Counted from the first letter of the stretch, positions 460 through 10,020 are shown. The stretch: DNA of 10,324 nt from Promethearchaeota archaeon (GCA_008080735.1 SHMW01000027.1:35250-45573); one strand, 5' to 3'. Notes: generated by a model from the sequence alone, not told the origin. Numbers and translations: made by a program.

Positions 460-1113
460 CTATTTATCCTCGATTCCTAATTGAGAGATCATTTCTTTTT
501 TCATTTCCTCAACATTTTTGGGTAAGCTGAAAGTTTCAGCATATTTCTCAGTTGTTGTTAGTTCAGAAGTGCGACCCTTTTTTACAGAATTAATAAATCC
601 GTTATCTTCTAAGTATTGTACATGTTCATAGGCACCACTTCCTCGTATTTTAACAAGTGTAGATTTTAAAATGGGTTGTTTCAATGCAATAATAGTAAGC
701 GTGCGTAAATATTTTTCTGCCATCCCCCCACCCTCTGCGAATTGGGAAATCGGATCTGTGTATTCACTTTTTATCTGCATTTGATATTTATCTCCTATAT
801 TTATTATAGTGAGAGCTGTGGTTCTTTTATTATATTCTTCAACTAATTCATCCATATATTTTTGGACATCAGATTTAGAAATATCCAGTCTTGTATATAA
901 TTCTTCAACGGTTAGTGGTTCTCCGGAAGCATATAGCGCGCCTTCTATAAGATTTCTTTGATATACTTCAATATCAATGTCGATATTTGCCTCTTCTTCA
1001 GTATCCTTACTGGATTCGAAGAGGTCTTGAGTCGCTATTAATTTATCATTTTGGGTATTGTCAAGATTTTGATCGAGTTCCTTTTTTAGCTCTTCTTTTT
1101 CATTATTTGACAT
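460..1113 (-). CDS. scpB: Segregation and condensation protein B (KITE subunit, tandem winged-helix)
   Basis: ScpB motifs IEGALYASGEPLTVEEL, YQMQIK, LRTLTIIALKQPI, IRGSGAYEHVQYL..GFI, GRT..L.TTEKYAETF. It has a ~50-aa acidic N-terminal extension and lies directly downstream of scpA. Confidence 0.95.
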   Translation of the reverse strand: MSNNEKEELKKELDQNLDNTQNDKLIATQDLFESSKDTEEEANIDIDIEVYQRNLIEGALYASGEPLTVEELYTRLDISKSDVQKYMDELVEEYNKRTTALTIINIGDKYQMQIKSEYTDPISQFAEGGGMAEKYLRTLTIIALKQPILKSTLVKIRGSGAYEHVQYLEDNGFINSVKKGRTSELTTTEKYAETFSLPKNVEEMKKEMISQLGIEDK

Positions 1114-1154: not shown

Positions 1155-2159
1155 TCATGCTATTGATATGTTTATATCTTTGAATTCGTCATCTTGATTT
1201 AGTTTAATTCTATTGTTCGTGCTCAAAAACATCAAAGCTAAAAACATTCGTATAAATTCGTACTTTCTTCCTAAAATGCTCTCTTCATCTTCATTAATTA
1301 GTTTGACCAAGTTATAAAATGAAGTTTTATCCTTATTTTCAAGTTTAATTTTCGTCTTGATTTTATTGAACCATGAATCGTGCAGTTCCTCTACTGATTG
1401 TTCTCTCCCGCTAATATGTTTGAGGAGCTCTTTTGGAAGGCTCGCATTAGACTTTTCTTCTTTACGCTGTTCTTTCTCTTTGTTCCGTTTTAAACGTCTC
1501 CGTTTTAATTTTTCCTTTTTTTGCATTGTTTCGATGATCGCAGCCCGCATTGCGTCATATAACTCATCTTTACTTGTCATTTTCATTTTCGGTTTTACTG
1601 GTTGGGAGAGGGTTTTCGGGATTTTTCTTCTGGTTCTTTTTCTCATTTCTTCTATCTTTTCTTGTTTCTGTATCTCCTCTTCTTGTTTTATAACGCTTGT
1701 GATTTTGTCATGATGTAAGGAAGCCGAAGTTTTTAAGGCAATGCCAGAAATTTTATAATTTATAAAATCCTCTCTTAGCATTTTATCAAAAAATTTATCA
1801 ACCAATGAAGATAAATCATAAAAGGCTACATCAGAATCTTTTGCTAAATCAATATTCAATAGGGTAGAGTATGGAGGTTTATGCCAGAATTTCAAATCTG
1901 TTTTATCTTTCCTAAAAAGAGGGCCTTTTTCATCCTCCTCTACCGCGCCCTCTCCAGCATTTAACTCTTCGTCTAAGACATCTTCTTTAGTTCGGTCGAC
2001 AAACTCAGGATGAGAAACTACTCCTTCTAATATTTCTATGATTTCATTTTTTTTGCTTCCAGACGGTAGTGAGATATTATTAGTTGAAGCAAAATCACGC
2101 AATTCATTAACTGTCCACTCCCTAAACTCATATTCTACTTCTTCATCCTTTTCTGACAT
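1155..2159 (-). CDS. scpA: ScpA-type kleisin with extra N-terminal Rho_N/SAP-like domain
   Basis: Kleisin N-domain-like block YDLSSLVDKFFDKM...INYKISGIALKTSASLHHDK. Central TSKDELYDAMRAAI resembles the archaeal ScpA T-x-x-EL-x-x-A block. C-terminal winged-helix signature FIRMFLALMFLSTNNRIKLNQDDEFKDINI. Adjacent to scpB and near smc. Confidence 0.88.
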   Translation of the reverse strand: MSEKDEEVEYEFREWTVNELRDFASTNNISLPSGSKKNEIIEILEGVVSHPEFVDRTKEDVLDEELNAGEGAVEEDEKGPLFRKDKTDLKFWHKPPYSTLLNIDLAKDSDVAFYDLSSLVDKFFDKMLREDFINYKISGIALKTSASLHHDKITSVIKQEEEIQKQEKIEEMRKRTRRKIPKTLSQPVKPKMKMTSKDELYDAMRAAIIETMQKKEKLKRRRLKRNKEKEQRKEEKSNASLPKELLKHISGREQSVEELHDSWFNKIKTKIKLENKDKTSFYNLVKLINEDEESILGRKYEFIRMFLALMFLSTNNRIKLNQDDEFKDINISIA

Positions 2160-2284: not shown

Positions 2285-5200
2285 ATGATTAGTAATAAAA
2301 AAAAAGAGAAAAATAAACTCAAATCATTTAAGATTTTATATATTTATCCTTTTGAATCTTTTGGCAAGCCGAGCTTCTTGGTTAATTTTTTAAGAATCTC
2401 CAATTACTTGAATTCGAAAAAATCTAGTTTTACAAATGTTTCGATTAAAGAAGAATATTTAGATTTGAGATTTGAACACTTACCAAAATTTATTCCAGAA
2501 AATCTGTCTCTGTACAGAGATAAACTCAATAACCTATTATGTCAAACTAAAAAACAATTTAAATTTGATCTGGTCGCAATTTCTTGCTATAGCTCGTTTA
2601 ACTATTTAAATACATTGGAAGTGGCAAGTATGATTAAATATGAAATTGCTCCAGAGAGTATCATTGTTGTAGGCGGCGTACATGCCAGTATGAGACCTCA
2701 AGATTTCCAACCGGGCGGATTATCTCGCCTTATAGAGAAAGAATATCCGAAAAATACCACACCCTTCGATTTTTTAATTCAAGAAGAGGGTGAGATTTCA
2801 TTTTTTAAGTTAGTGAGAGATCTTATCAATAATAACATATCAATTCGAAATAGTGTCTATGAAGAATGTATTATCAGAGAAAGGGAAATAGTAAATAATC
2901 TGGATGAAATACCAATCATCAATCCCGAGCTTTATGAAAAATATCGAGAAACTCTTAAAATTCATGATAATTTTTATTTGGATTTTTCAAGAGGTTGTTT
3001 ATTCAGGTGTAATATATGTCCAACGTCACAAGACCATATGAAATCATACAAAAAAGTTCGCTATAAATCTATTGACCGATGCATTGAAGAATTAAAGGTG
3101 ATTAGAGACACTAAGTGGCTTGAAGTTAAATCCGTATACATTGTAGATTTAACCTTCTTACCTAAAAGGAGTAAGAGAAAGGAGTTTTATTTAAAACTGA
3201 ATAATTCAATAAATTCAGAAGGGCCATTACCTTTTAATCTTTATCTCAACGAGAGAATTGACCTATGTTGGGATGAGGATTTGATTTGGTATAAAAAGTT
3301 AAACATTATCCCTCTTATCGGCTTAGAAACGGGTTCAAAAACATTGTTGTGGAAGATGAATAAGATTCTGGGGAAAAATGATAACCAAAAAAAATTAAGA
3401 ATTGCAAGGTATTTAAAAAGGGCGGAACAAATTATAGTGAAATGTAATGAATTAGATTTAAAAGCTGTTTTCTATTATATGATGGGCGTTCCGGGAACAG
3501 ATAGCAAGATCTTTAAGGAAAACAGAGAATTCTTCCTAGAACCGAGATTTCAGGGTGAATCCTTGATCGAGAAATATGATATTAATTTAAGCATCTCAAA
3601 ATATATAGCCCTGTGTGGTTCAGAAATATATAAAAATGCTCATAAAAAATATAACGCGAAAGTTTATTGTAAGGAGTGGTGGAAACGGTTCCATAAATAC
3701 TCCCCATTTTTAGGAGCTTTAGTGGATCCAGAAGAACATTATTCATTGCTTAATTGCTTAAATCACGAATATGGTTTCATTAAACAATTATTTAAAGCTC
3801 AATTAAGAAGGAAAAATAAATTTTATTCCATACCGAAATTACTAATCCAAAAAAGAAATTTTGAATTGTTAAAAAAACTTTATAAGGAAATAGGTGGTGC
3901 TGAAGAGCTAGCAAAAAAAAGAAAAAATCCCATAAAAAAATCTATCAAAATACTATATATATATCCTTATGAATCGGTCGGGAAAAAGTTTTGCCTTCCC
4001 GGAATTGCCAGAATCTCAAGTTTTATTAATTCAAAGAAAGAGATAATAAACGCAAACATCGAGGCTGAGATTCTTGATCTGAAATATGAGCTATTGCCAG
4101 AATATATTCCCGAAAATCTAAGTGAATATAGAAAGAAGGTAAGAAAAATTTTAAAACATCTCAATGAGAAATTCAGATTCGATATTGTCCTGATTATGAA
4201 CTTCGATTCATTCAACTATACAAATACTCTGGAGGTAGGGAACATAATTAAACATAACGTAAATAAGAATGCGATTATTGTTGTTAATGGTTTTCATCCA
4301 ACAACTTGTCCTGAGGATTTTGAAATTAAAAATATTCCCGTGTACTTTAATAAAACTTATCCAGAAAATACAACCCCTTTCGATTTCATAATTTTAGAGG
4401 AGGGTGAAATTCCATTTTTAAACCTTGTCAAAAAATTTAGTAATAATGAACTTTCTGTAAGAAAATCTATTGAAGACCCATCAAAAGTGTTAGGTCCAAT
4501 GAATATTGATGATTTAGATGAAATCCCAATAATAAATTTAGAGATTTTTAAAAAATATGCTGATAAAATTCAAAATTTTTACGTAGAATTTAATCGTGGA
4601 TGTATGTTTAATTGTAACTATTGTTCACTTTCGGGTTATAATATTCCATCTTTAGGGAAAATGCGTTTCAAATCAATTAAGAAATCTATCGAAGAGCTTC
4701 GTATATTGAATGAGACAGATTGGTTAGATTTACAGCATGTATTTATTATTGATTTAGTGTTCTATCCAAATAGAAAAATGAGAGAACAATTTTTTGAAGG
4801 ATTAGAGCGTATGATCGAGGAGGTAGGTCCTCTTTCTTTTCAAATTTATGTAATGGATAGAGTAGATATATGCACTCCCTCAGATCTTGAAAAATACAAA
4901 CAATTAAATATAATTCCCCATATTGGACTTGAATCTGGTGCCAAGCAAAATCTTTTCAATATGAATAAGATTCTTGGAAAGAAAAATGAGAACTATAAAA
5001 AACGATTGGACCTATTTTTAGAAAAAACGATTATGCTTTTTGAAAAGATAAATCAATTGGATTTAGACGCTGTGTTTTTCTATTTAATAGGTCTCCCAGG
5101 AGAAAATGAAGAAATAATAAAAGAAAATTTTCGATTCTTTTTTAATCCCAAATACGATGGTAAATCTCTAATGGAAAAATACAAAATCAACCTCAGTATT

Positions 5201-5527
5201 TCAAAATATGCTGCGCTTCCTGGATCTTATTTCTATGAGCATTCTGAGGAGGATTTTGGAACTAAAATTCATTTTCCAGAGTGGTGGAAATATCTTCATA
5301 AATATAAAAAATATTTTCCAACAATCGTGGATCCAAGTGTAGATCTAAATTTAGTTGAGTCCTTAAGAAAAAACCATAAGTTAGTTAAGAAAATATACTA
5401 TTCTCAAAAGGATTTAAAGAATAGTTATTATACTCCAATCAAGGCTTTTATTCAGAAACATGGGGAGGAAAACATGATCGAAGTTTATGAAAAAAGAGAA
5501 TTGATTAAAAAGGAATTATTAAAATGA
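2285..5527 (+). CDS. Tandem (double) cobalamin-binding-domain radical SAM protein (class B rSAM-like), two complete modules
   Basis: Module 1: B12-binding-like FDLVAISCYSS...IIVVGGVHAS...EEGE, SRGCLFRCNIC (C238/242/245, nt 2996-3019), IGLETGS, YMMGVPG. Module 2: FDIVLIMN...IIVVNGFHPT...EEGE, NRGCMFNCNYC (C773/777/780, nt 4601-4624), IGLESGA, YLIGLPGE. The Cys motifs are offset by 535 aa. Confidence 0.9.
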   Translation: MISNKKKEKNKLKSFKILYIYPFESFGKPSFLVNFLRISNYLNSKKSSFTNVSIKEEYLDLRFEHLPKFIPENLSLYRDKLNNLLCQTKKQFKFDLVAISCYSSFNYLNTLEVASMIKYEIAPESIIVVGGVHASMRPQDFQPGGLSRLIEKEYPKNTTPFDFLIQEEGEISFFKLVRDLINNNISIRNSVYEECIIREREIVNNLDEIPIINPELYEKYRETLKIHDNFYLDFSRGCLFRCNICPTSQDHMKSYKKVRYKSIDRCIEELKVIRDTKWLEVKSVYIVDLTFLPKRSKRKEFYLKLNNSINSEGPLPFNLYLNERIDLCWDEDLIWYKKLNIIPLIGLETGSKTLLWKMNKILGKNDNQKKLRIARYLKRAEQIIVKCNELDLKAVFYYMMGVPGTDSKIFKENREFFLEPRFQGESLIEKYDINLSISKYIALCGSEIYKNAHKKYNAKVYCKEWWKRFHKYSPFLGALVDPEEHYSLLNCLNHEYGFIKQLFKAQLRRKNKFYSIPKLLIQKRNFELLKKLYKEIGGAEELAKKRKNPIKKSIKILYIYPYESVGKKFCLPGIARISSFINSKKEIINANIEAEILDLKYELLPEYIPENLSEYRKKVRKILKHLNEKFRFDIVLIMNFDSFNYTNTLEVGNIIKHNVNKNAIIVVNGFHPTTCPEDFEIKNIPVYFNKTYPENTTPFDFIILEEGEIPFLNLVKKFSNNELSVRKSIEDPSKVLGPMNIDDLDEIPIINLEIFKKYADKIQNFYVEFNRGCMFNCNYCSLSGYNIPSLGKMRFKSIKKSIEELRILNETDWLDLQHVFIIDLVFYPNRKMREQFFEGLERMIEEVGPLSFQIYVMDRVDICTPSDLEKYKQLNIIPHIGLESGAKQNLFNMNKILGKKNENYKKRLDLFLEKTIMLFEKINQLDLDAVFFYLIGLPGENEEIIKENFRFFFNPKYDGKSLMEKYKINLSISKYAALPGSYFYEHSEEDFGTKIHFPEWWKYLHKYKKYFPTIVDPSVDLNLVESLRKNHKLVKKIYYSQKDLKNSYYTPIKAFIQKHGEENMIEVYEKRELIKKELLK

Positions 5528-5580: not shown

Positions 5581-8500
5581 TTAGGTTTTAGAAACAGCTT
5601 CTTCAGTTTCTAACAAGCGTTTTGCTTCCTCTTCTAAATCTACGCTAAAAATATCTGTTATTCCGCTTTCTTGCATGGAAACGCCATATATCCTATCAGC
5701 ATTCACGATATTCTCTTCACGATGGCTGATGATAAGAAATTGGGCTTGTTCAGCGAATTCTTTTATTACCATTGATACGCGATGTACATTCGGGCCATCG
5801 AGAGCGGCATCAATCTCGTCCATTACGTAGAATGGCGCGGGATAGAACTCTTGGACGGCAAAGATGAAGGAGAGCGCTACGAGCGTTTTCTCACCCCCGC
5901 TAAGAATTTCCAGCGAAGCGATCTTCTTTCCTCGTGGTCGAGCCTCAATGCTTATCCCACCTTCAAATGGTTTATCGGGGCGGTCTAAAATCATTTTGGC
6001 TGAGCCCCCAGGAGAAAGCTTCTGGAAGATTTTGGAGAATTCTCTGTTAATTTCGTGATATGATTTCATGAACGTTTGAGTCTTTTCCAGTTCTATTTTC
6101 TCTATAGCGTCTAAAATTGATTTCCTTTCACGTTGGATGGTCTGTCTTCTCATATCAATCTCATCGAAGCGCTCCTTTACTGAATCATATTGTTTTATAG
6201 CTTTAAGATTCACGGGTTCAAGAGCTTCTTTCTTTTTAGTAGCACCTTTGATATCAGAGTGTAAATTTTCTTCTGAAATATCTTCTGTAAGATGTGGTAG
6301 AGCCCCATAATCTTTCGATCTCTGATAAAGAGTTTCAATTTGATCATTAGTCGCAATTTTTTTCGATTCTAAATTATTTAATTTTGATTGCTTCATTGAA
6401 AGGTCTGATTTCAGATCGGTATACATTTCTTGATATTTCTTTTGCTTATTCCACGATTCATCTTTCTCTTCCGTTAATTTATCAATCTCCTGTTGCTTTT
6501 GAGTTTTTTGTGTATTAACCTCTTGTAGATTCTCTTTGATTATATCGATTTTTTCATTCAAGTTAGTGATTTGGTCTTTAGTTTGAGAGATTTCCTTCGA
6601 GATGGACTCAATTCTGTCTGCTCTCTCTTTGCTACTTTTTAAATCATTTAATTTATTCTGAGCATCTTGAAGATTTTTATTTAGTGTATTTAAGTCTTTT
6701 TGGGCGTTTTTCTGAGCGTCAATTTCCTTATTTTTTTCGTCTCTTAATCCATTTACCTCTTCTTCGAAAGTTTCGACCGATTTTTGGATCTCTGAGATGT
6801 TTTCATTGAGTTCATCTATTTCTTTTTGATTTTGTTTAATTTTATTCTCAGAATCGAGATTTTCACTCTTAAGGTCCTCAATAGTATTAATTATTCTTTG
6901 AATATTCTCTAAAGAACGGAGTTTATCTAAAATAGACTCCAGTTTTTCATTCTTATCATCGATTTTATCCTGTAAATTTCCCGTTTCTTCCCAAAATCTT
7001 TCTTTTTCATTATTAAGATCTTCAATTTCCCCGTTAATACCCTTTTTTTTCTGTTCTAATGAGTTAATTTTGTTATTTATCTCAGAAATACTTTTTTTCT
7101 TATCATCAATTATGCTTTTTGACTTTTTTGTTGCCTCTTCAATGGCATCTATATTATCAAAAAGGGATTGAATATCTCGTAGATCTTGCAGTTTTGATTG
7201 TATTTTTTCCAGTTGTCTCTGTTTTTCATCAATCTTTTCTTGAATCTCAGAGATCTGATCCCAATGAGTTTCTTTAGATAATTTCAATTGATTTATTTTT
7301 TCTTCTAATTCCCTCTTTTCTTGTAATTTCTTTTCAATGACTTTATCCCTTTCTTGTTCTTCCGCTCTTAATTCTTGATTTTTCGTATTTAAATCATTAA
7401 TATTCTCTTTAACCTTGTCAAGTTTGCTCTTGGAAATTGATAAATCTTCCGAATCGTGTGATTTTTGGATCTGAAATTCTGAAATCTGTTTTTCTATATC
7501 ATTCAAATCATCTTCTTGACTTTTTATGTTATTAATGATTTCCTCTAGTTGTTTGTATAAATCCTGACTTTTTGAGACGGTAAGTTTTCTTAAAGAAATA
7601 TGCATATTTTCTAGGATCTCCATTAAATCTTGTACAAAATTATCAAAATTAGAGGTAGAATCTTGAACAGCTACATCGACAGAATCTTTAACTTTCGTTA
7701 TCAATTGTCCAATGGTTTCATCAGCATTATCCGTGAACAAAGATAAAGTTTGCATGATGGAATTTAGCATTTTATCCGTCTCCTCAGTTTCTTCCACTTC
7801 ACAGCTCACATCTTCAACAGTCTTCATCATATCGATTACATCTAATATGAATTTTTGAAAATCCTCGGCAGACATTTCAATTGCTTCGGCGTTTGATTGC
7901 TGTATATTACTTTTTATAGACTCGACGGAGATGTTTATATTCTGGGTGAGCATGTTCAAAATTTGTAAAATCCCTTCAATATCTTTTTTATCTTTTTGAT
8001 ATTCTTCCTCTGCACGATCTATCCTACTCTGTGTTTTTTGTTTCTCTGCTTTTAGTTCATTTAAACGCCTCAACACATTTTCTTTTCGTTTTATTAGGTT
8101 ATCGCGTTTTTTATCGATAGAAGAAATATTCTCTTTTAAGGATTGAATTCTCATAGAAAGATTTTTCTCTTCTCTTTCCGATTCTTTTAGATCTTTTTCA
8201 TAAAGATTTTCCCGAGTTTTAATATTACTTATTTTTGATTGATTATCATTAATTTCCGAGATGATTGACTCGAATTTCATCTGAAATAGTTCCAAGTTTT
8301 TCTCATTTTGTTGAAATTCAAAATTTCTGTTTTTTAATTCTTTACGTAATTTTTGAATTTTTTCCAATATTTGCTCTTTAGTTTGGTTTAATTCTTTTAA
8401 TGCAGCTTCAATATCTTTTCCCTTACTAAGAGATTCAATTTTAGATTTCATTTGCTTTTTTTTTTCTTGCAAATCTGTAATATTTTCATTATGCATTTTG

Positions 8501-10020
8501 ATCTCTGTGTTAATGGATGAAAGATTAGAATTAAAAGTGGATATCTTCGAATTAATCTGGTTAATCTCCTCTCTTTTTGAATCTATTTGATTCTCGAGTA
8601 ATCTTCGATTTTCGTTTTCTTTTGAAATCTGGTTTTTTAAGTTATCAATTTCCGACCGTAAATTTTCTTCTTCTTGTTTTTTTTTTTTTATGGCTTCCTG
8701 AATGCTTTCGGCATCGCCTTTAAGAGTATTTAATTCATTTTGTAATTTTTCTTTTTTTTCCAGATTTTTCTTTATACTATTCTGTAAATGTGTTATAGTT
8801 GATTCCTTAGAAGAGATTTGTTGTTTTAACTCCGATATATTAGCCTTTAGCTTACTCTTTTCTTTTTCCTTAGAATTGATTTTATTGTCAATTGCTGTTT
8901 GGTTCTGTTGTCGTTTGTCGATCTCTTGTTTCGCGGTCTCCAGTTTTGATTCAATCATTTCAATATTTTCTTCTGCCTTAGAGATTAACGATTCATAAGT
9001 CTGATCTTCCTCTAATTGTGTTTGCTGACTTTCTAGTTCAGTCTTTTCTGCGTTCAATTTTTTAAGCGATTTCTCTGCTAATTTTAACGTTGTTTCATTA
9101 GACGACAATTCTGTTTTAAGTTCTGTTATATGTTCATTAATCTCATCTCGTTCCTTTTCTTTCTGATTTATAGAGTTTTGTATATTTTCCATTACCAATG
9201 ATTCTTGTTCTACGATATCTTTTTGACGCCCTATTTTTTCCTCAAGTTCGTCAATCATCTTATTGGTTTCTTCAATTTGTGCTTCGATAGTCTCCTCTTC
9301 TTCTTTTAATTTTGAAATCTTTAACGCAATTAATTTGGATTTTAAGTTATTAATTTCTTGTTCCAGTTCTTTCCAGGCCAAGGCATCATTTTTTTCCTTT
9401 TCGACCTTTTTTAGTTGAGAAGAAACTTCCTTAAAAATTGCTTCAAACTGTCCCAAATCTCGCTCTGCTTTCTCTAACTCCTTCATAGTCTCTTCCTTCA
9501 TATCATCATATTTCTGAAGGCCGATTAATTCCTCTATAAATTCCCGCCTTTCAATTGTACCCATATGAGTTAATTCAACAATTTTTCCTTGCAATACAAA
9601 TTGATTGCTTCCATCTGGATCTATATTCGCTGATGCTAATGTATCAAGAATTTGCTGCCGTGTGGTAATCTTATCATTCATTTTATATTTATTTCCTTTA
9701 TTTCTTCTCACCACTCGTGTAATCTGAAATTCATCAGTCCCTCCTGGGAAAATTCCTTCTGAATTGTCAAAATATAATGTTACAGATGCCCTATTACCTT
9801 CTTTATGCCCTCTCGAGCCTGCGAAGATAAGATCCTCCAGTTTTTCTGCCCTCATTGTCTTTTTAGATAGTCTGCCAAGTGCAAAACATAGTGCATCAAT
9901 TATATTAGATTTTCCAGCACCATTGGGGCCGACTATACAAGTAAAGCCTGGAGAAAGCCTAACTGTGACGGTTCTATTCCCGAATGACTTAAACCCAGTC
10001 ATACTGATTCTTTTAATCAA
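5581..10020 (-). CDS. smc: Chromosome segregation SMC ATPase, atypical (1479 aa, no recognisable canonical hinge)
   Basis: GFKSF, Walker A GPNGAGKSN, R-loop MRA..LEDLIFAG, Q-loop VLQG, the PVNLKAI..Y motif typical of Smc proper, signature LSGGEK, Walker B/D-loop YVMDEIDAALD, H-loop IISH, long heptad arms. TTG start, with an in-frame stop 7 codons upstream. Confidence 0.95.
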   Translation of the reverse strand: MIKRISMTGFKSFGNRTVTVRLSPGFTCIVGPNGAGKSNIIDALCFALGRLSKKTMRAEKLEDLIFAGSRGHKEGNRASVTLYFDNSEGIFPGGTDEFQITRVVRRNKGNKYKMNDKITTRQQILDTLASANIDPDGSNQFVLQGKIVELTHMGTIERREFIEELIGLQKYDDMKEETMKELEKAERDLGQFEAIFKEVSSQLKKVEKEKNDALAWKELEQEINNLKSKLIALKISKLKEEEETIEAQIEETNKMIDELEEKIGRQKDIVEQESLVMENIQNSINQKEKERDEINEHITELKTELSSNETTLKLAEKSLKKLNAEKTELESQQTQLEEDQTYESLISKAEENIEMIESKLETAKQEIDKRQQNQTAIDNKINSKEKEKSKLKANISELKQQISSKESTITHLQNSIKKNLEKKEKLQNELNTLKGDAESIQEAIKKKKQEEENLRSEIDNLKNQISKENENRRLLENQIDSKREEINQINSKISTFNSNLSSINTEIKMHNENITDLQEKKKQMKSKIESLSKGKDIEAALKELNQTKEQILEKIQKLRKELKNRNFEFQQNEKNLELFQMKFESIISEINDNQSKISNIKTRENLYEKDLKESEREEKNLSMRIQSLKENISSIDKKRDNLIKRKENVLRRLNELKAEKQKTQSRIDRAEEEYQKDKKDIEGILQILNMLTQNINISVESIKSNIQQSNAEAIEMSAEDFQKFILDVIDMMKTVEDVSCEVEETEETDKMLNSIMQTLSLFTDNADETIGQLITKVKDSVDVAVQDSTSNFDNFVQDLMEILENMHISLRKLTVSKSQDLYKQLEEIINNIKSQEDDLNDIEKQISEFQIQKSHDSEDLSISKSKLDKVKENINDLNTKNQELRAEEQERDKVIEKKLQEKRELEEKINQLKLSKETHWDQISEIQEKIDEKQRQLEKIQSKLQDLRDIQSLFDNIDAIEEATKKSKSIIDDKKKSISEINNKINSLEQKKKGINGEIEDLNNEKERFWEETGNLQDKIDDKNEKLESILDKLRSLENIQRIINTIEDLKSENLDSENKIKQNQKEIDELNENISEIQKSVETFEEEVNGLRDEKNKEIDAQKNAQKDLNTLNKNLQDAQNKLNDLKSSKERADRIESISKEISQTKDQITNLNEKIDIIKENLQEVNTQKTQKQQEIDKLTEEKDESWNKQKKYQEMYTDLKSDLSMKQSKLNNLESKKIATNDQIETLYQRSKDYGALPHLTEDISEENLHSDIKGATKKKEALEPVNLKAIKQYDSVKERFDEIDMRRQTIQRERKSILDAIEKIELEKTQTFMKSYHEINREFSKIFQKLSPGGSAKMILDRPDKPFEGGISIEARPRGKKIASLEILSGGEKTLVALSFIFAVQEFYPAPFYVMDEIDAALDGPNVHRVSMVIKEFAEQAQFLIISHREENIVNADRIYGVSMQESGITDIFSVDLEEEAKRLLETEEAVSKT
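6361..7329 (-). repeat. Exact 90-aa-period repeats in the SMC C-terminal arm strand (~4 copies)
   Basis: Trp at aa 920, 1010 and 1190 (CCA at nt 7261, 6991, 6451), with Ile at the in-phase position 1100. Example matches: INQLKLSKETHWDQ / IEDLNNEKERFWEE / VNGLRDEKNKEIDA / IDKLTEEKDESWNK, each followed by an in-register KL..L. Confidence 0.8.
7603..7980 (-). repeat. Two-copy, 71-aa-period helical repeat at the SMC apex (aa 681-806)
   Basis: Ungapped alignment of IEGILQILNMLTQNINISVESIKSNIQQSNAEAIEMSAEDFQKFILDVIDMMKTV with LNSIMQTLSLFTDNADETIGQLITKVKDSVDVAVQDSTSNFDNFVQDLMEILENM gives 11/55 identities by hand count and a conserved hydrophobic pattern. Confidence 0.75.
8137..9183 (-). repeat. ~97-98-aa tandem repeats in the SMC N-terminal arm strand (3 clear copies plus 1 partial)
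   Basis: An (L/I)S(S/N) anchor recurs at aa 305, 402, 500 and 597. Example matches: INQKEKERDEINEHITELKTELSS / INSKEKEKSKLKANISELKQQISS / IDSKREEINQINSKISTFNSNLSS. Confidence 0.7.

Follow-up and report, generated by a model that had tools for sequence, protein, structure and literature searches.

How motors of the SMC (structural maintenance of chromosomes) family use their coiled-coil arms, and why the length of these arms is conserved, is an open mechanistic question. A periodic length rule is directly supported only by engineered Bacillus subtilis Smc, for which viability recurs with an arm-length period of 91 amino acids (aa); the same study gives a superhelical period of about 99 aa for this protein, reports that arm lengths in nature have modes at 238, 341 and 515 aa, and sees the same periodic pattern after exchange of the hinge for a zinc hook (Burmann et al., 2017; PMC5344682). 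The authors of that work cite tropomyosin, which tolerates the deletion of whole repeats but not of parts of them. SMC variants that lack a hinge have been described in marine Actinobacteria (PMC12153180), and two SMC complexes, possibly three, are recognised in Asgard archaea. Here we describe the smc gene on a 10,324-nucleotide stretch of DNA from a Promethearchaeota archaeon (GCA_008080735.1, SHMW01000027.1:35250-45573; hereafter the window), whose product lacks a hinge and carries four tandem repeat units on each strand of its arm. Our search of the literature found no publication on these repeats, nor any on an Asgard Smc that lacks the hinge.

The protein shares its head family, its kleisin and kite neighbours, and an arm that behaves as a functional unit with B. 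subtilis Smc-ScpAB. It differs in having no hinge and in the length of its arms, each strand of which extends for about 570 aa as compared with 344 aa; moreover, the period is legible here as tandem sequence repeats on both strands, and the whole-period step that was engineered in B. subtilis occurs naturally between sister clades. The tie between a long-range sequence period and the coiled-coil superhelix recalls tropomyosin, which is, however, an actin-binding coiled coil of two parallel chains, whereas the arm described here is predicted to be an antiparallel intramolecular hairpin with a separate repeat family on each strand. The actinobacterial variants likewise combine an SMC-type head and arm with the loss of the hinge domain, but they are bacterial and highly divergent, and neither arm repeats nor length classes feature in their description.

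On the C-terminal strand of the arm (C strand, residues 860-1219) the BLOSUM62 autocorrelation reaches its maximum at a lag of 90, with a value of 1.10 against only about 0.2 at the heptad lags. In a control in which whole heptad blocks were permuted 1000 times, no shuffle gave a signal as high (0/1000; z 13.9), and a family profile of 124 sequences shows peaks at lags 90, 180 and 270 on the same strand. The only tryptophans of the protein are found at residues 216, 920, 1010 and 1190; the last three occupy the matching position in units C1, C2 and C4, where they are invariant or nearly so across the family, and residue 1100 is an isoleucine. On the N-terminal strand (N strand, residues 234-622) no single lag scores higher than 195 (0.79; 0/1000 shuffles, z 8.5), and sliding diagonals on the 124-sequence profile separate this into lags of 97 (residues 234-330), 98 (332-430) and 97 (444-525). 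A self-comparison of the whole protein by BLASTP returned the identity match alone, and we therefore compared it piecewise, with composition correction, against a masked copy, taking E values in a single-sequence search space. This gave matches between residues 900-958 and 990-1048 (36% identity, ungapped, E 1e-7), 1068-1140 and 1158-1231 (32%, E 3e-5), and 377-424 and 280-328 (47%, E 4e-7).

Both 90 and 97 leave a remainder of six when divided by seven, so that the period is not a multiple of the heptad. There is no detectable similarity between the N units and the C units, and the Tandem Repeats Finder program found no tandem repeats of these periods in the DNA; as no repeat is left at this level, the duplications are old. 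The lags of 90 and 195 are kept in three long-form members of the family at 42-43% identity, and the 90-/97-aa signal is absent from 11 canonical Asgard Smc proteins. The arms are nearly free of insertions and deletions in the 124 long members and in nine members of a shorter class described below. The repeats are true products of duplication, far above heptad background, and are not an artefact of assembly.

The arm of this Smc has a shorter natural counterpart. A search with residues 520-960, covering N4, the apex and C1, against 1.84 billion representative proteins gave 34 matches, of which the full-length ones are 1464-1497 aa long, plus one of 1296 aa (P0257, labelled Sigynarchaeota). When P0257 was used as the query, eight further full-length proteins of 1290-1304 aa were recovered at 65-70% identity, and next to these only the class of 1462-1505 aa. 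The hinge-less clade thus falls into two classes, one with four units on each strand (4+4; 1462-1505 aa) and one with three (3+3; 1290-1304 aa), the latter a sister clade labelled Sigynarchaeota, with N-strand lags of 97 and 99 and a C-strand lag of 90. No protein of the intermediate length of about 1386-1393 aa was present among the full-length matches of any homologue search. Co-variation of the N- and C-strand copy numbers among homologues had been set beforehand as a test in the initial annotation of this stretch, and the outcome was positive, 4+4 and 3+3 being the only forms found. The 4+4 form includes a protein of 1505 aa (P0296) labelled Candidatus Lokiarchaeum ossiferum, a cultured organism.

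Comparison of the 4+4 and 3+3 profiles locates the additional material. On the N strand the offset between the two changes from +4 to -92 (96-97 aa) within N2-N3, and on the C strand from -97 to -187 (90 aa) at about 949/950. Units C4, C3 and C2 map to C3', C2' and C1' of the short form, whereas C1 matches C1' as well, but with greater divergence; the first three N units correspond to N1', N2' and N3', a mapping that is clear for their first halves, and N4 has no one-to-one partner. The tryptophan pattern of the C units runs W, W, -, W in the long form and W, -, W in the short one. The unit mapping and the tryptophan pattern together identify the extra material as the pair of N4 and C1, which adjoin the apex and are predicted partners. 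We consider it probable that the arms of this clade changed in length by a single, complete pair of matched modules. The difference between the classes, 90 aa on one strand and 96-97 aa on the other, fits a period of 91-99 aa on both strands, and the size of the module may be linked to the superhelical period.

To place the units in a structural context we used an AlphaFold2 (AF2) monomer model of residues 200-1260 calculated from an 83-sequence alignment. The model is all-helical, with a mean predicted local distance difference test (pLDDT) score of 80.7, and its best Foldseek matches are the arms of MukB, Smc2/4, Smc5/6, JetC and Rad50; a long intramolecular antiparallel coiled-coil arm is predicted. 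The helices are interrupted at residues 332-341, 434-439, 533-536, 739-746 (the turn, with pLDDT <50), 949, 1034-1041 and 1236-1249. All three unit borders of the N strand coincide with such breaks, as do two of the C strand's three (949 and 1034-1041). A frame scan of the family profile shows a heptad frame that is constant within every unit and slips by one residue at most unit borders: on the C strand near 948, 1039 and 1133, and on the N strand near 338 and 540, with no drop at the N2/N3 border, where the spacing of 98 equals 14 heptads. A C unit accordingly falls one residue short of 13 heptads, and an N unit spans either 14 full heptads or one residue fewer. The loops at the N-strand breaks are 10, 6 and 4 residues long, two of them with glycine in this Smc and the third with glycine in the family consensus, and some of the additional heptad of the N units is probably absorbed by these loops.

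The helices flanking the turn, residues 537-738 and 747-948, are both 202 residues long. This equality would set the N-strand break at 533-536 opposite the C-strand kink at 949, and the break at 434-439 opposite that at 1034-1041, and facing breaks of this kind would pair N4 with C1, N3 with C2, N2 with C3 and N1 with C4. On this reading, N unit k would lie against C unit 5-k. The initial annotation, made from the sequence alone, had read an exact 90-aa period on the C strand marked by W920, W1010, I1100 and W1190, a 97/98/97-aa spacing on the N strand, about four copies per side and the scars of duplication; the analyses above agree with all of these, the four units of each strand falling at matching places in the predicted hairpin, and its account of the B. 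subtilis arm-length work is accurate as to the 91-aa period. The span that it had given, window positions 6361-9183 (residues ~280-1220), does contain repeats but starts slightly late, as N1 begins near residue 234 (window 9321), and its figure of about 500 aa per strand is too low if the helical apex is counted, the N strand then extending over residues ~170-738 and the C strand over ~747-1343.

The tip of the arm is formed by a helical hairpin in the position of the hinge. We found no match to the SMC hinge family PF06470 in this Smc or in three clade members at 42-43% identity, whereas canonical Asgard Smc proteins score 107-116 bits against the same model. The centre of the apex (residues ~677-830) is helical and is the best-conserved stretch between the two heads, and a sequence search of the PDB with the apex region found no meaningful relative. 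Within the apex there is a weak internal BLASTP match, residues 672-721 against 743-792, at a lag of 71. Apex-like helical domains are also seen at the N terminus of six non-SMC proteins of 620-1179 aa (P0266, P0267, P0263, P0269, P0274 and P0272), one domain by search match and a second by eye, beyond which come a different region without repeats and then a tail rich in Lys; the apex domain of Smc may therefore exist outside Smc as well.

We propose that the arm forms a single long, hinge-free antiparallel coiled-coil hairpin with four tandem modules per strand, resized in evolution by a whole module pair, and we regard this as a likely account of the data. Each module would comprise about 13 uninterrupted heptads, measure about 13 nm and correspond to roughly one turn of the coiled-coil superhelix. 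The pairing of N(k) with C(5-k) would set the discontinuities of the two strands face to face and so produce a segmented arm, and the modules derive from old tandem duplications on both strands. Steps of a whole turn may have been selected because they keep the rotational phase between the heads and the apex, in keeping with the rule of Burmann et al. A broader version, in which SMC arms evolve as a chain of one-superhelical-turn modules gained or lost as matched N/C pairs by the apex, here giving a hinge-free arm of about 85 nm with a joint at each border between modules, must be put forward tentatively, and we would not yet back it over its denial.

A number of observations weigh against the module-pair model. 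The AF2 model has no break at the C3/C4 border, the pairing register derives only from the secondary-structure breaks of a monomer model, and the mapping of the N units to the short form is ambiguous in their second halves. The two classes represent a single copy-number event between sister clades, and the co-variation of the strands is hence not statistical; because the 3+3 and 4+4 clades are sisters, gain and loss of the module pair are indistinguishable, and the initial annotation went too far in describing the change as an extension of the arm. It had also counted about two extra periods over canonical Smc. With a canonical paralogue folded by AF2 as a control, the arms described here are about 228 aa per strand longer, a figure that includes the apex hairpin at the hinge site, which amounts to a non-integer extension of about 2.4 units. 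The canonical arms have no homologous repeat, and their predicted breaks, at residues 290, 375-381 and 461-466 on the N strand and 802-808 and 925 on the C strand, are about 85 aa apart and are not collinear with the long-form breaks at 332-341, 434-439, 533-536, 949 and 1034-1041. We attempted to place the units on canonical arms in order to count ancestral copies, both by single-unit hmmsearch and by profile-profile scans. The scores were generic coiled-coil scores (z ~3, at many positions), C4 alone matching its collinear canonical site slightly better than elsewhere, and the ancestral copy number is accordingly not recoverable.

Some of these points would be expected if matched duplications were needed only to keep the two strands of the hairpin equal, the unit size of ~90-97 aa being a historical accident with no link to superhelix or phase. 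The single copy-number step, the extension by about 2.4 units, the difference of one heptad between N and C units, and the ~85-aa break spacing of canonical arms without sequence repeats all suit this explanation. However, the step of 90 and 96-97 aa brackets the functional period of 91 aa and lies near the superhelical period of ~99 aa, and arm length is strictly invariant within each class in more than 130 sequences, which points to a strong constraint on length; we consider an accidental unit size a serious rival, though an unlikely one. The period could also reflect repeated binding sites along the arm, like the quasi-repeats by which tropomyosin binds actin; the similarity of the units would then be upheld not by common descent alone but by selection for binding, for instance for arm-arm zippering in a rod state or for contact with a periodic partner protein. 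The near-invariant tryptophans of C1, C2 and C4 and the fact that the units are recognisable at 42% overall identity would accord with selection for binding, but no partner is known, C3 lacks the tryptophan, and the N and C units are dissimilar. We judge this reading quite improbable; it is compatible with an origin by duplication and not opposed to it. Finally, the arm has a high content of Lys, Glu, Asn and Ile, is heptad-patterned and gives many weak inter-arm BLASTP matches, as a generic coiled-coil or low-complexity background would; a background of this sort, or an artefact of assembly, is refuted by the heptad-block shuffles, by lags that are not multiples of seven, by the negative canonical controls, by the absence of a repeat in the DNA, and by the recurrence of the same periods in over 130 sequences obtained independently from metagenomes and isolates, and we give it practically no credence.

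The identity of the gene product is indicated by its heads and its neighbours. The two halves of an ABC-type head, matching PF02463 / SMC_N, are found at the two ends of the protein with the full set of motifs: Walker A (residues 31-38), Q-loop (142-146), the signature LSGGEK (1373-1378), Walker B (1397-1404) and H-loop (1430-1434). The whole protein scores 629.9 bits against TIGR02168, above the cut-off of 567.35, and 670.5 bits against TIGR02169, below the cut-off of 729.4. Its nearest homologues, of 1469-1492 aa and 58-80% identity, are labelled Lokiarchaeota, Promethearchaeota or Lokiarchaeia. The genes for ScpA and ScpB follow smc on the same strand, with a double B12-radical-SAM fusion gene on the opposite strand in between; in the genomes G144 and G089, smc, scpA and scpB are contiguous, with no such insert. 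As with the module-pair model to which it belongs, we think it likely that the gene encodes the Smc subunit of the Smc-ScpA-ScpB complex of a Lokiarchaeia (Asgard) archaeon, the binding of ScpAB being putative. As an ABC ATPase that has no hinge and sits on a long antiparallel coiled-coil hairpin, the protein also resembles Rad50/SbcC, and Rad50 arms are among the Foldseek matches. In contrast to Rad50, the heads here are of the Smc type, the partner is ScpAB and not Mre11, and there is no CxxC zinc hook, cysteine being present only at residues 28, 45 and 740. We rejected an identity with Rad50/SbcC, as the Rad50 models score far below their cut-offs and there is no CxxC at the apex.

The positions of these genes and of the arm units within the window are collected in Table 1. 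The radical-SAM gene (2285-5527, plus strand) encodes a protein of 1080 aa in which two complete B12-binding radical-SAM modules are fused. A weak N-terminal match to a Rho_N / SAP-like domain is seen at residues 15-45 of ScpA.

Table 1. Genes of the Smc-ScpAB locus and units of the Smc arm, with their coordinates in the window.
Feature	Residues of Smc	Window coordinates	Strand	Remarks
smc		5581..10020	-	single long open reading frame, 1479 aa, TTG start
N1	234-330	9031..9321	-	lag-97 diagonal on family profile; maps to N1' of the 3+3 family
N2	331-428	8737..9030	-	predicted 10-residue loop 332-341 at start
N3	429-525	8446..8736	-	Gly-containing loop 434-439
N4	526-622	8155..8445	-	loop 533-536; most diverged N unit; no one-to-one counterpart in the 3+3 clade
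Apex hairpin	623-859	7444..8154	-	in place of hinge; all-helical, turn 739-746
C1	860-949	7174..7443	-	W920; extra C unit relative to the 3+3 clade; predicted partner of N4
C2	950-1039	6904..7173	-	W1010; helix kink 949/950
C3	1040-1129	6634..6903	-	I1100 in place of Trp; break 1034-1041 ahead
C4	1130-1219	6364..6633	-	W1190
scpA (kleisin)		1155..2159	-	334 aa; PF02616 match; 61%-identical orthologue directly after smc in G144
scpB (kite)		460..1113	-	217 aa; PF04079, 119 bits; orthologues after scpA in G144 and G089

Among 201 Asgard genomes that we scanned, only two families of one order have the long form, apart from one further contig match. The 3+3 form is found in a third family of the same order. 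The further match (L013) is a long-form smc on an 8.6-kb contig, C70 of genome G193, which is assigned to another family; the gene is nearly identical to the copy in G165, and the contig is probably mis-binned. The Smc proteins of other Asgard families are 1187-1234 aa long. With this query, no Smc match at E 1e-30 was seen in the 21 genomes of family f5, the seven of f14 or the five of f17. In trees of the head domains the clade without a hinge (support 100/100) nests among canonical Asgard Smc proteins, and within it the 3+3 clade (100/100) is sister to the 4+4 clade (97/95). Canonical archaeal and Asgard Smc proteins, such as Pyrococcus Smc, have collinear heads of 30-36% identity to the protein described here, as well as ScpA/ScpB neighbours, but they carry the PF06470 hinge and do not have the 90-/97-aa sequence repeat. 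The eleven canonical Asgard proteins that served as controls (L014-L024) are 1187-1203 aa long, and a hinge was found in all four of those scanned against Pfam.

In some genomes of this order the long form is accompanied by a canonical Smc of about 1195 aa that has a hinge (L026:7043-10624 and L028:7043-10654). An open reading frame of 188-189 aa follows the canonical gene at both loci, with only 24-27% identity to ScpB; the combination of a canonical Smc and a ScpB-like protein suggests a third SMC complex in these organisms. No canonical Smc paralogue was found with that query in the genome studied here, which is 93% complete, and the only PF06470 match in this genome is to a divergent SMC-like protein of 1153 aa encoded elsewhere (L010:4747-9393, G000 contig C7). 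This protein has a weak hinge score of 36.7 bits and scores only 230 bits against TIGR02169, and its gene is followed on the same strand by two small open reading frames of 219 and 174 aa. It may belong to the SMC5/6-related complex described for Asgard archaea.

Taken together, our data describe an Smc-ScpAB with a modular, quantised arm and no hinge. The clade offers a natural experiment, in which two invariant arm-length classes lie one matched module apart in a complex with normal heads, kleisin and kite that has lost the hinge; the predicted arm lengths are about 85 nm for the 4+4 form and about 70 nm for the 3+3 form, against about 50 nm for canonical Smc. If the broader version of the module-pair model is correct, the clade would represent the periodic arm-length rule in nature, and a condensin-type Smc-ScpAB would need neither the hinge nor a fixed arm length. 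Eukaryotes have no closer known relatives than the Asgard archaea, and the architecture of these proteins would therefore bear on the range of SMC architectures that existed near eukaryogenesis.

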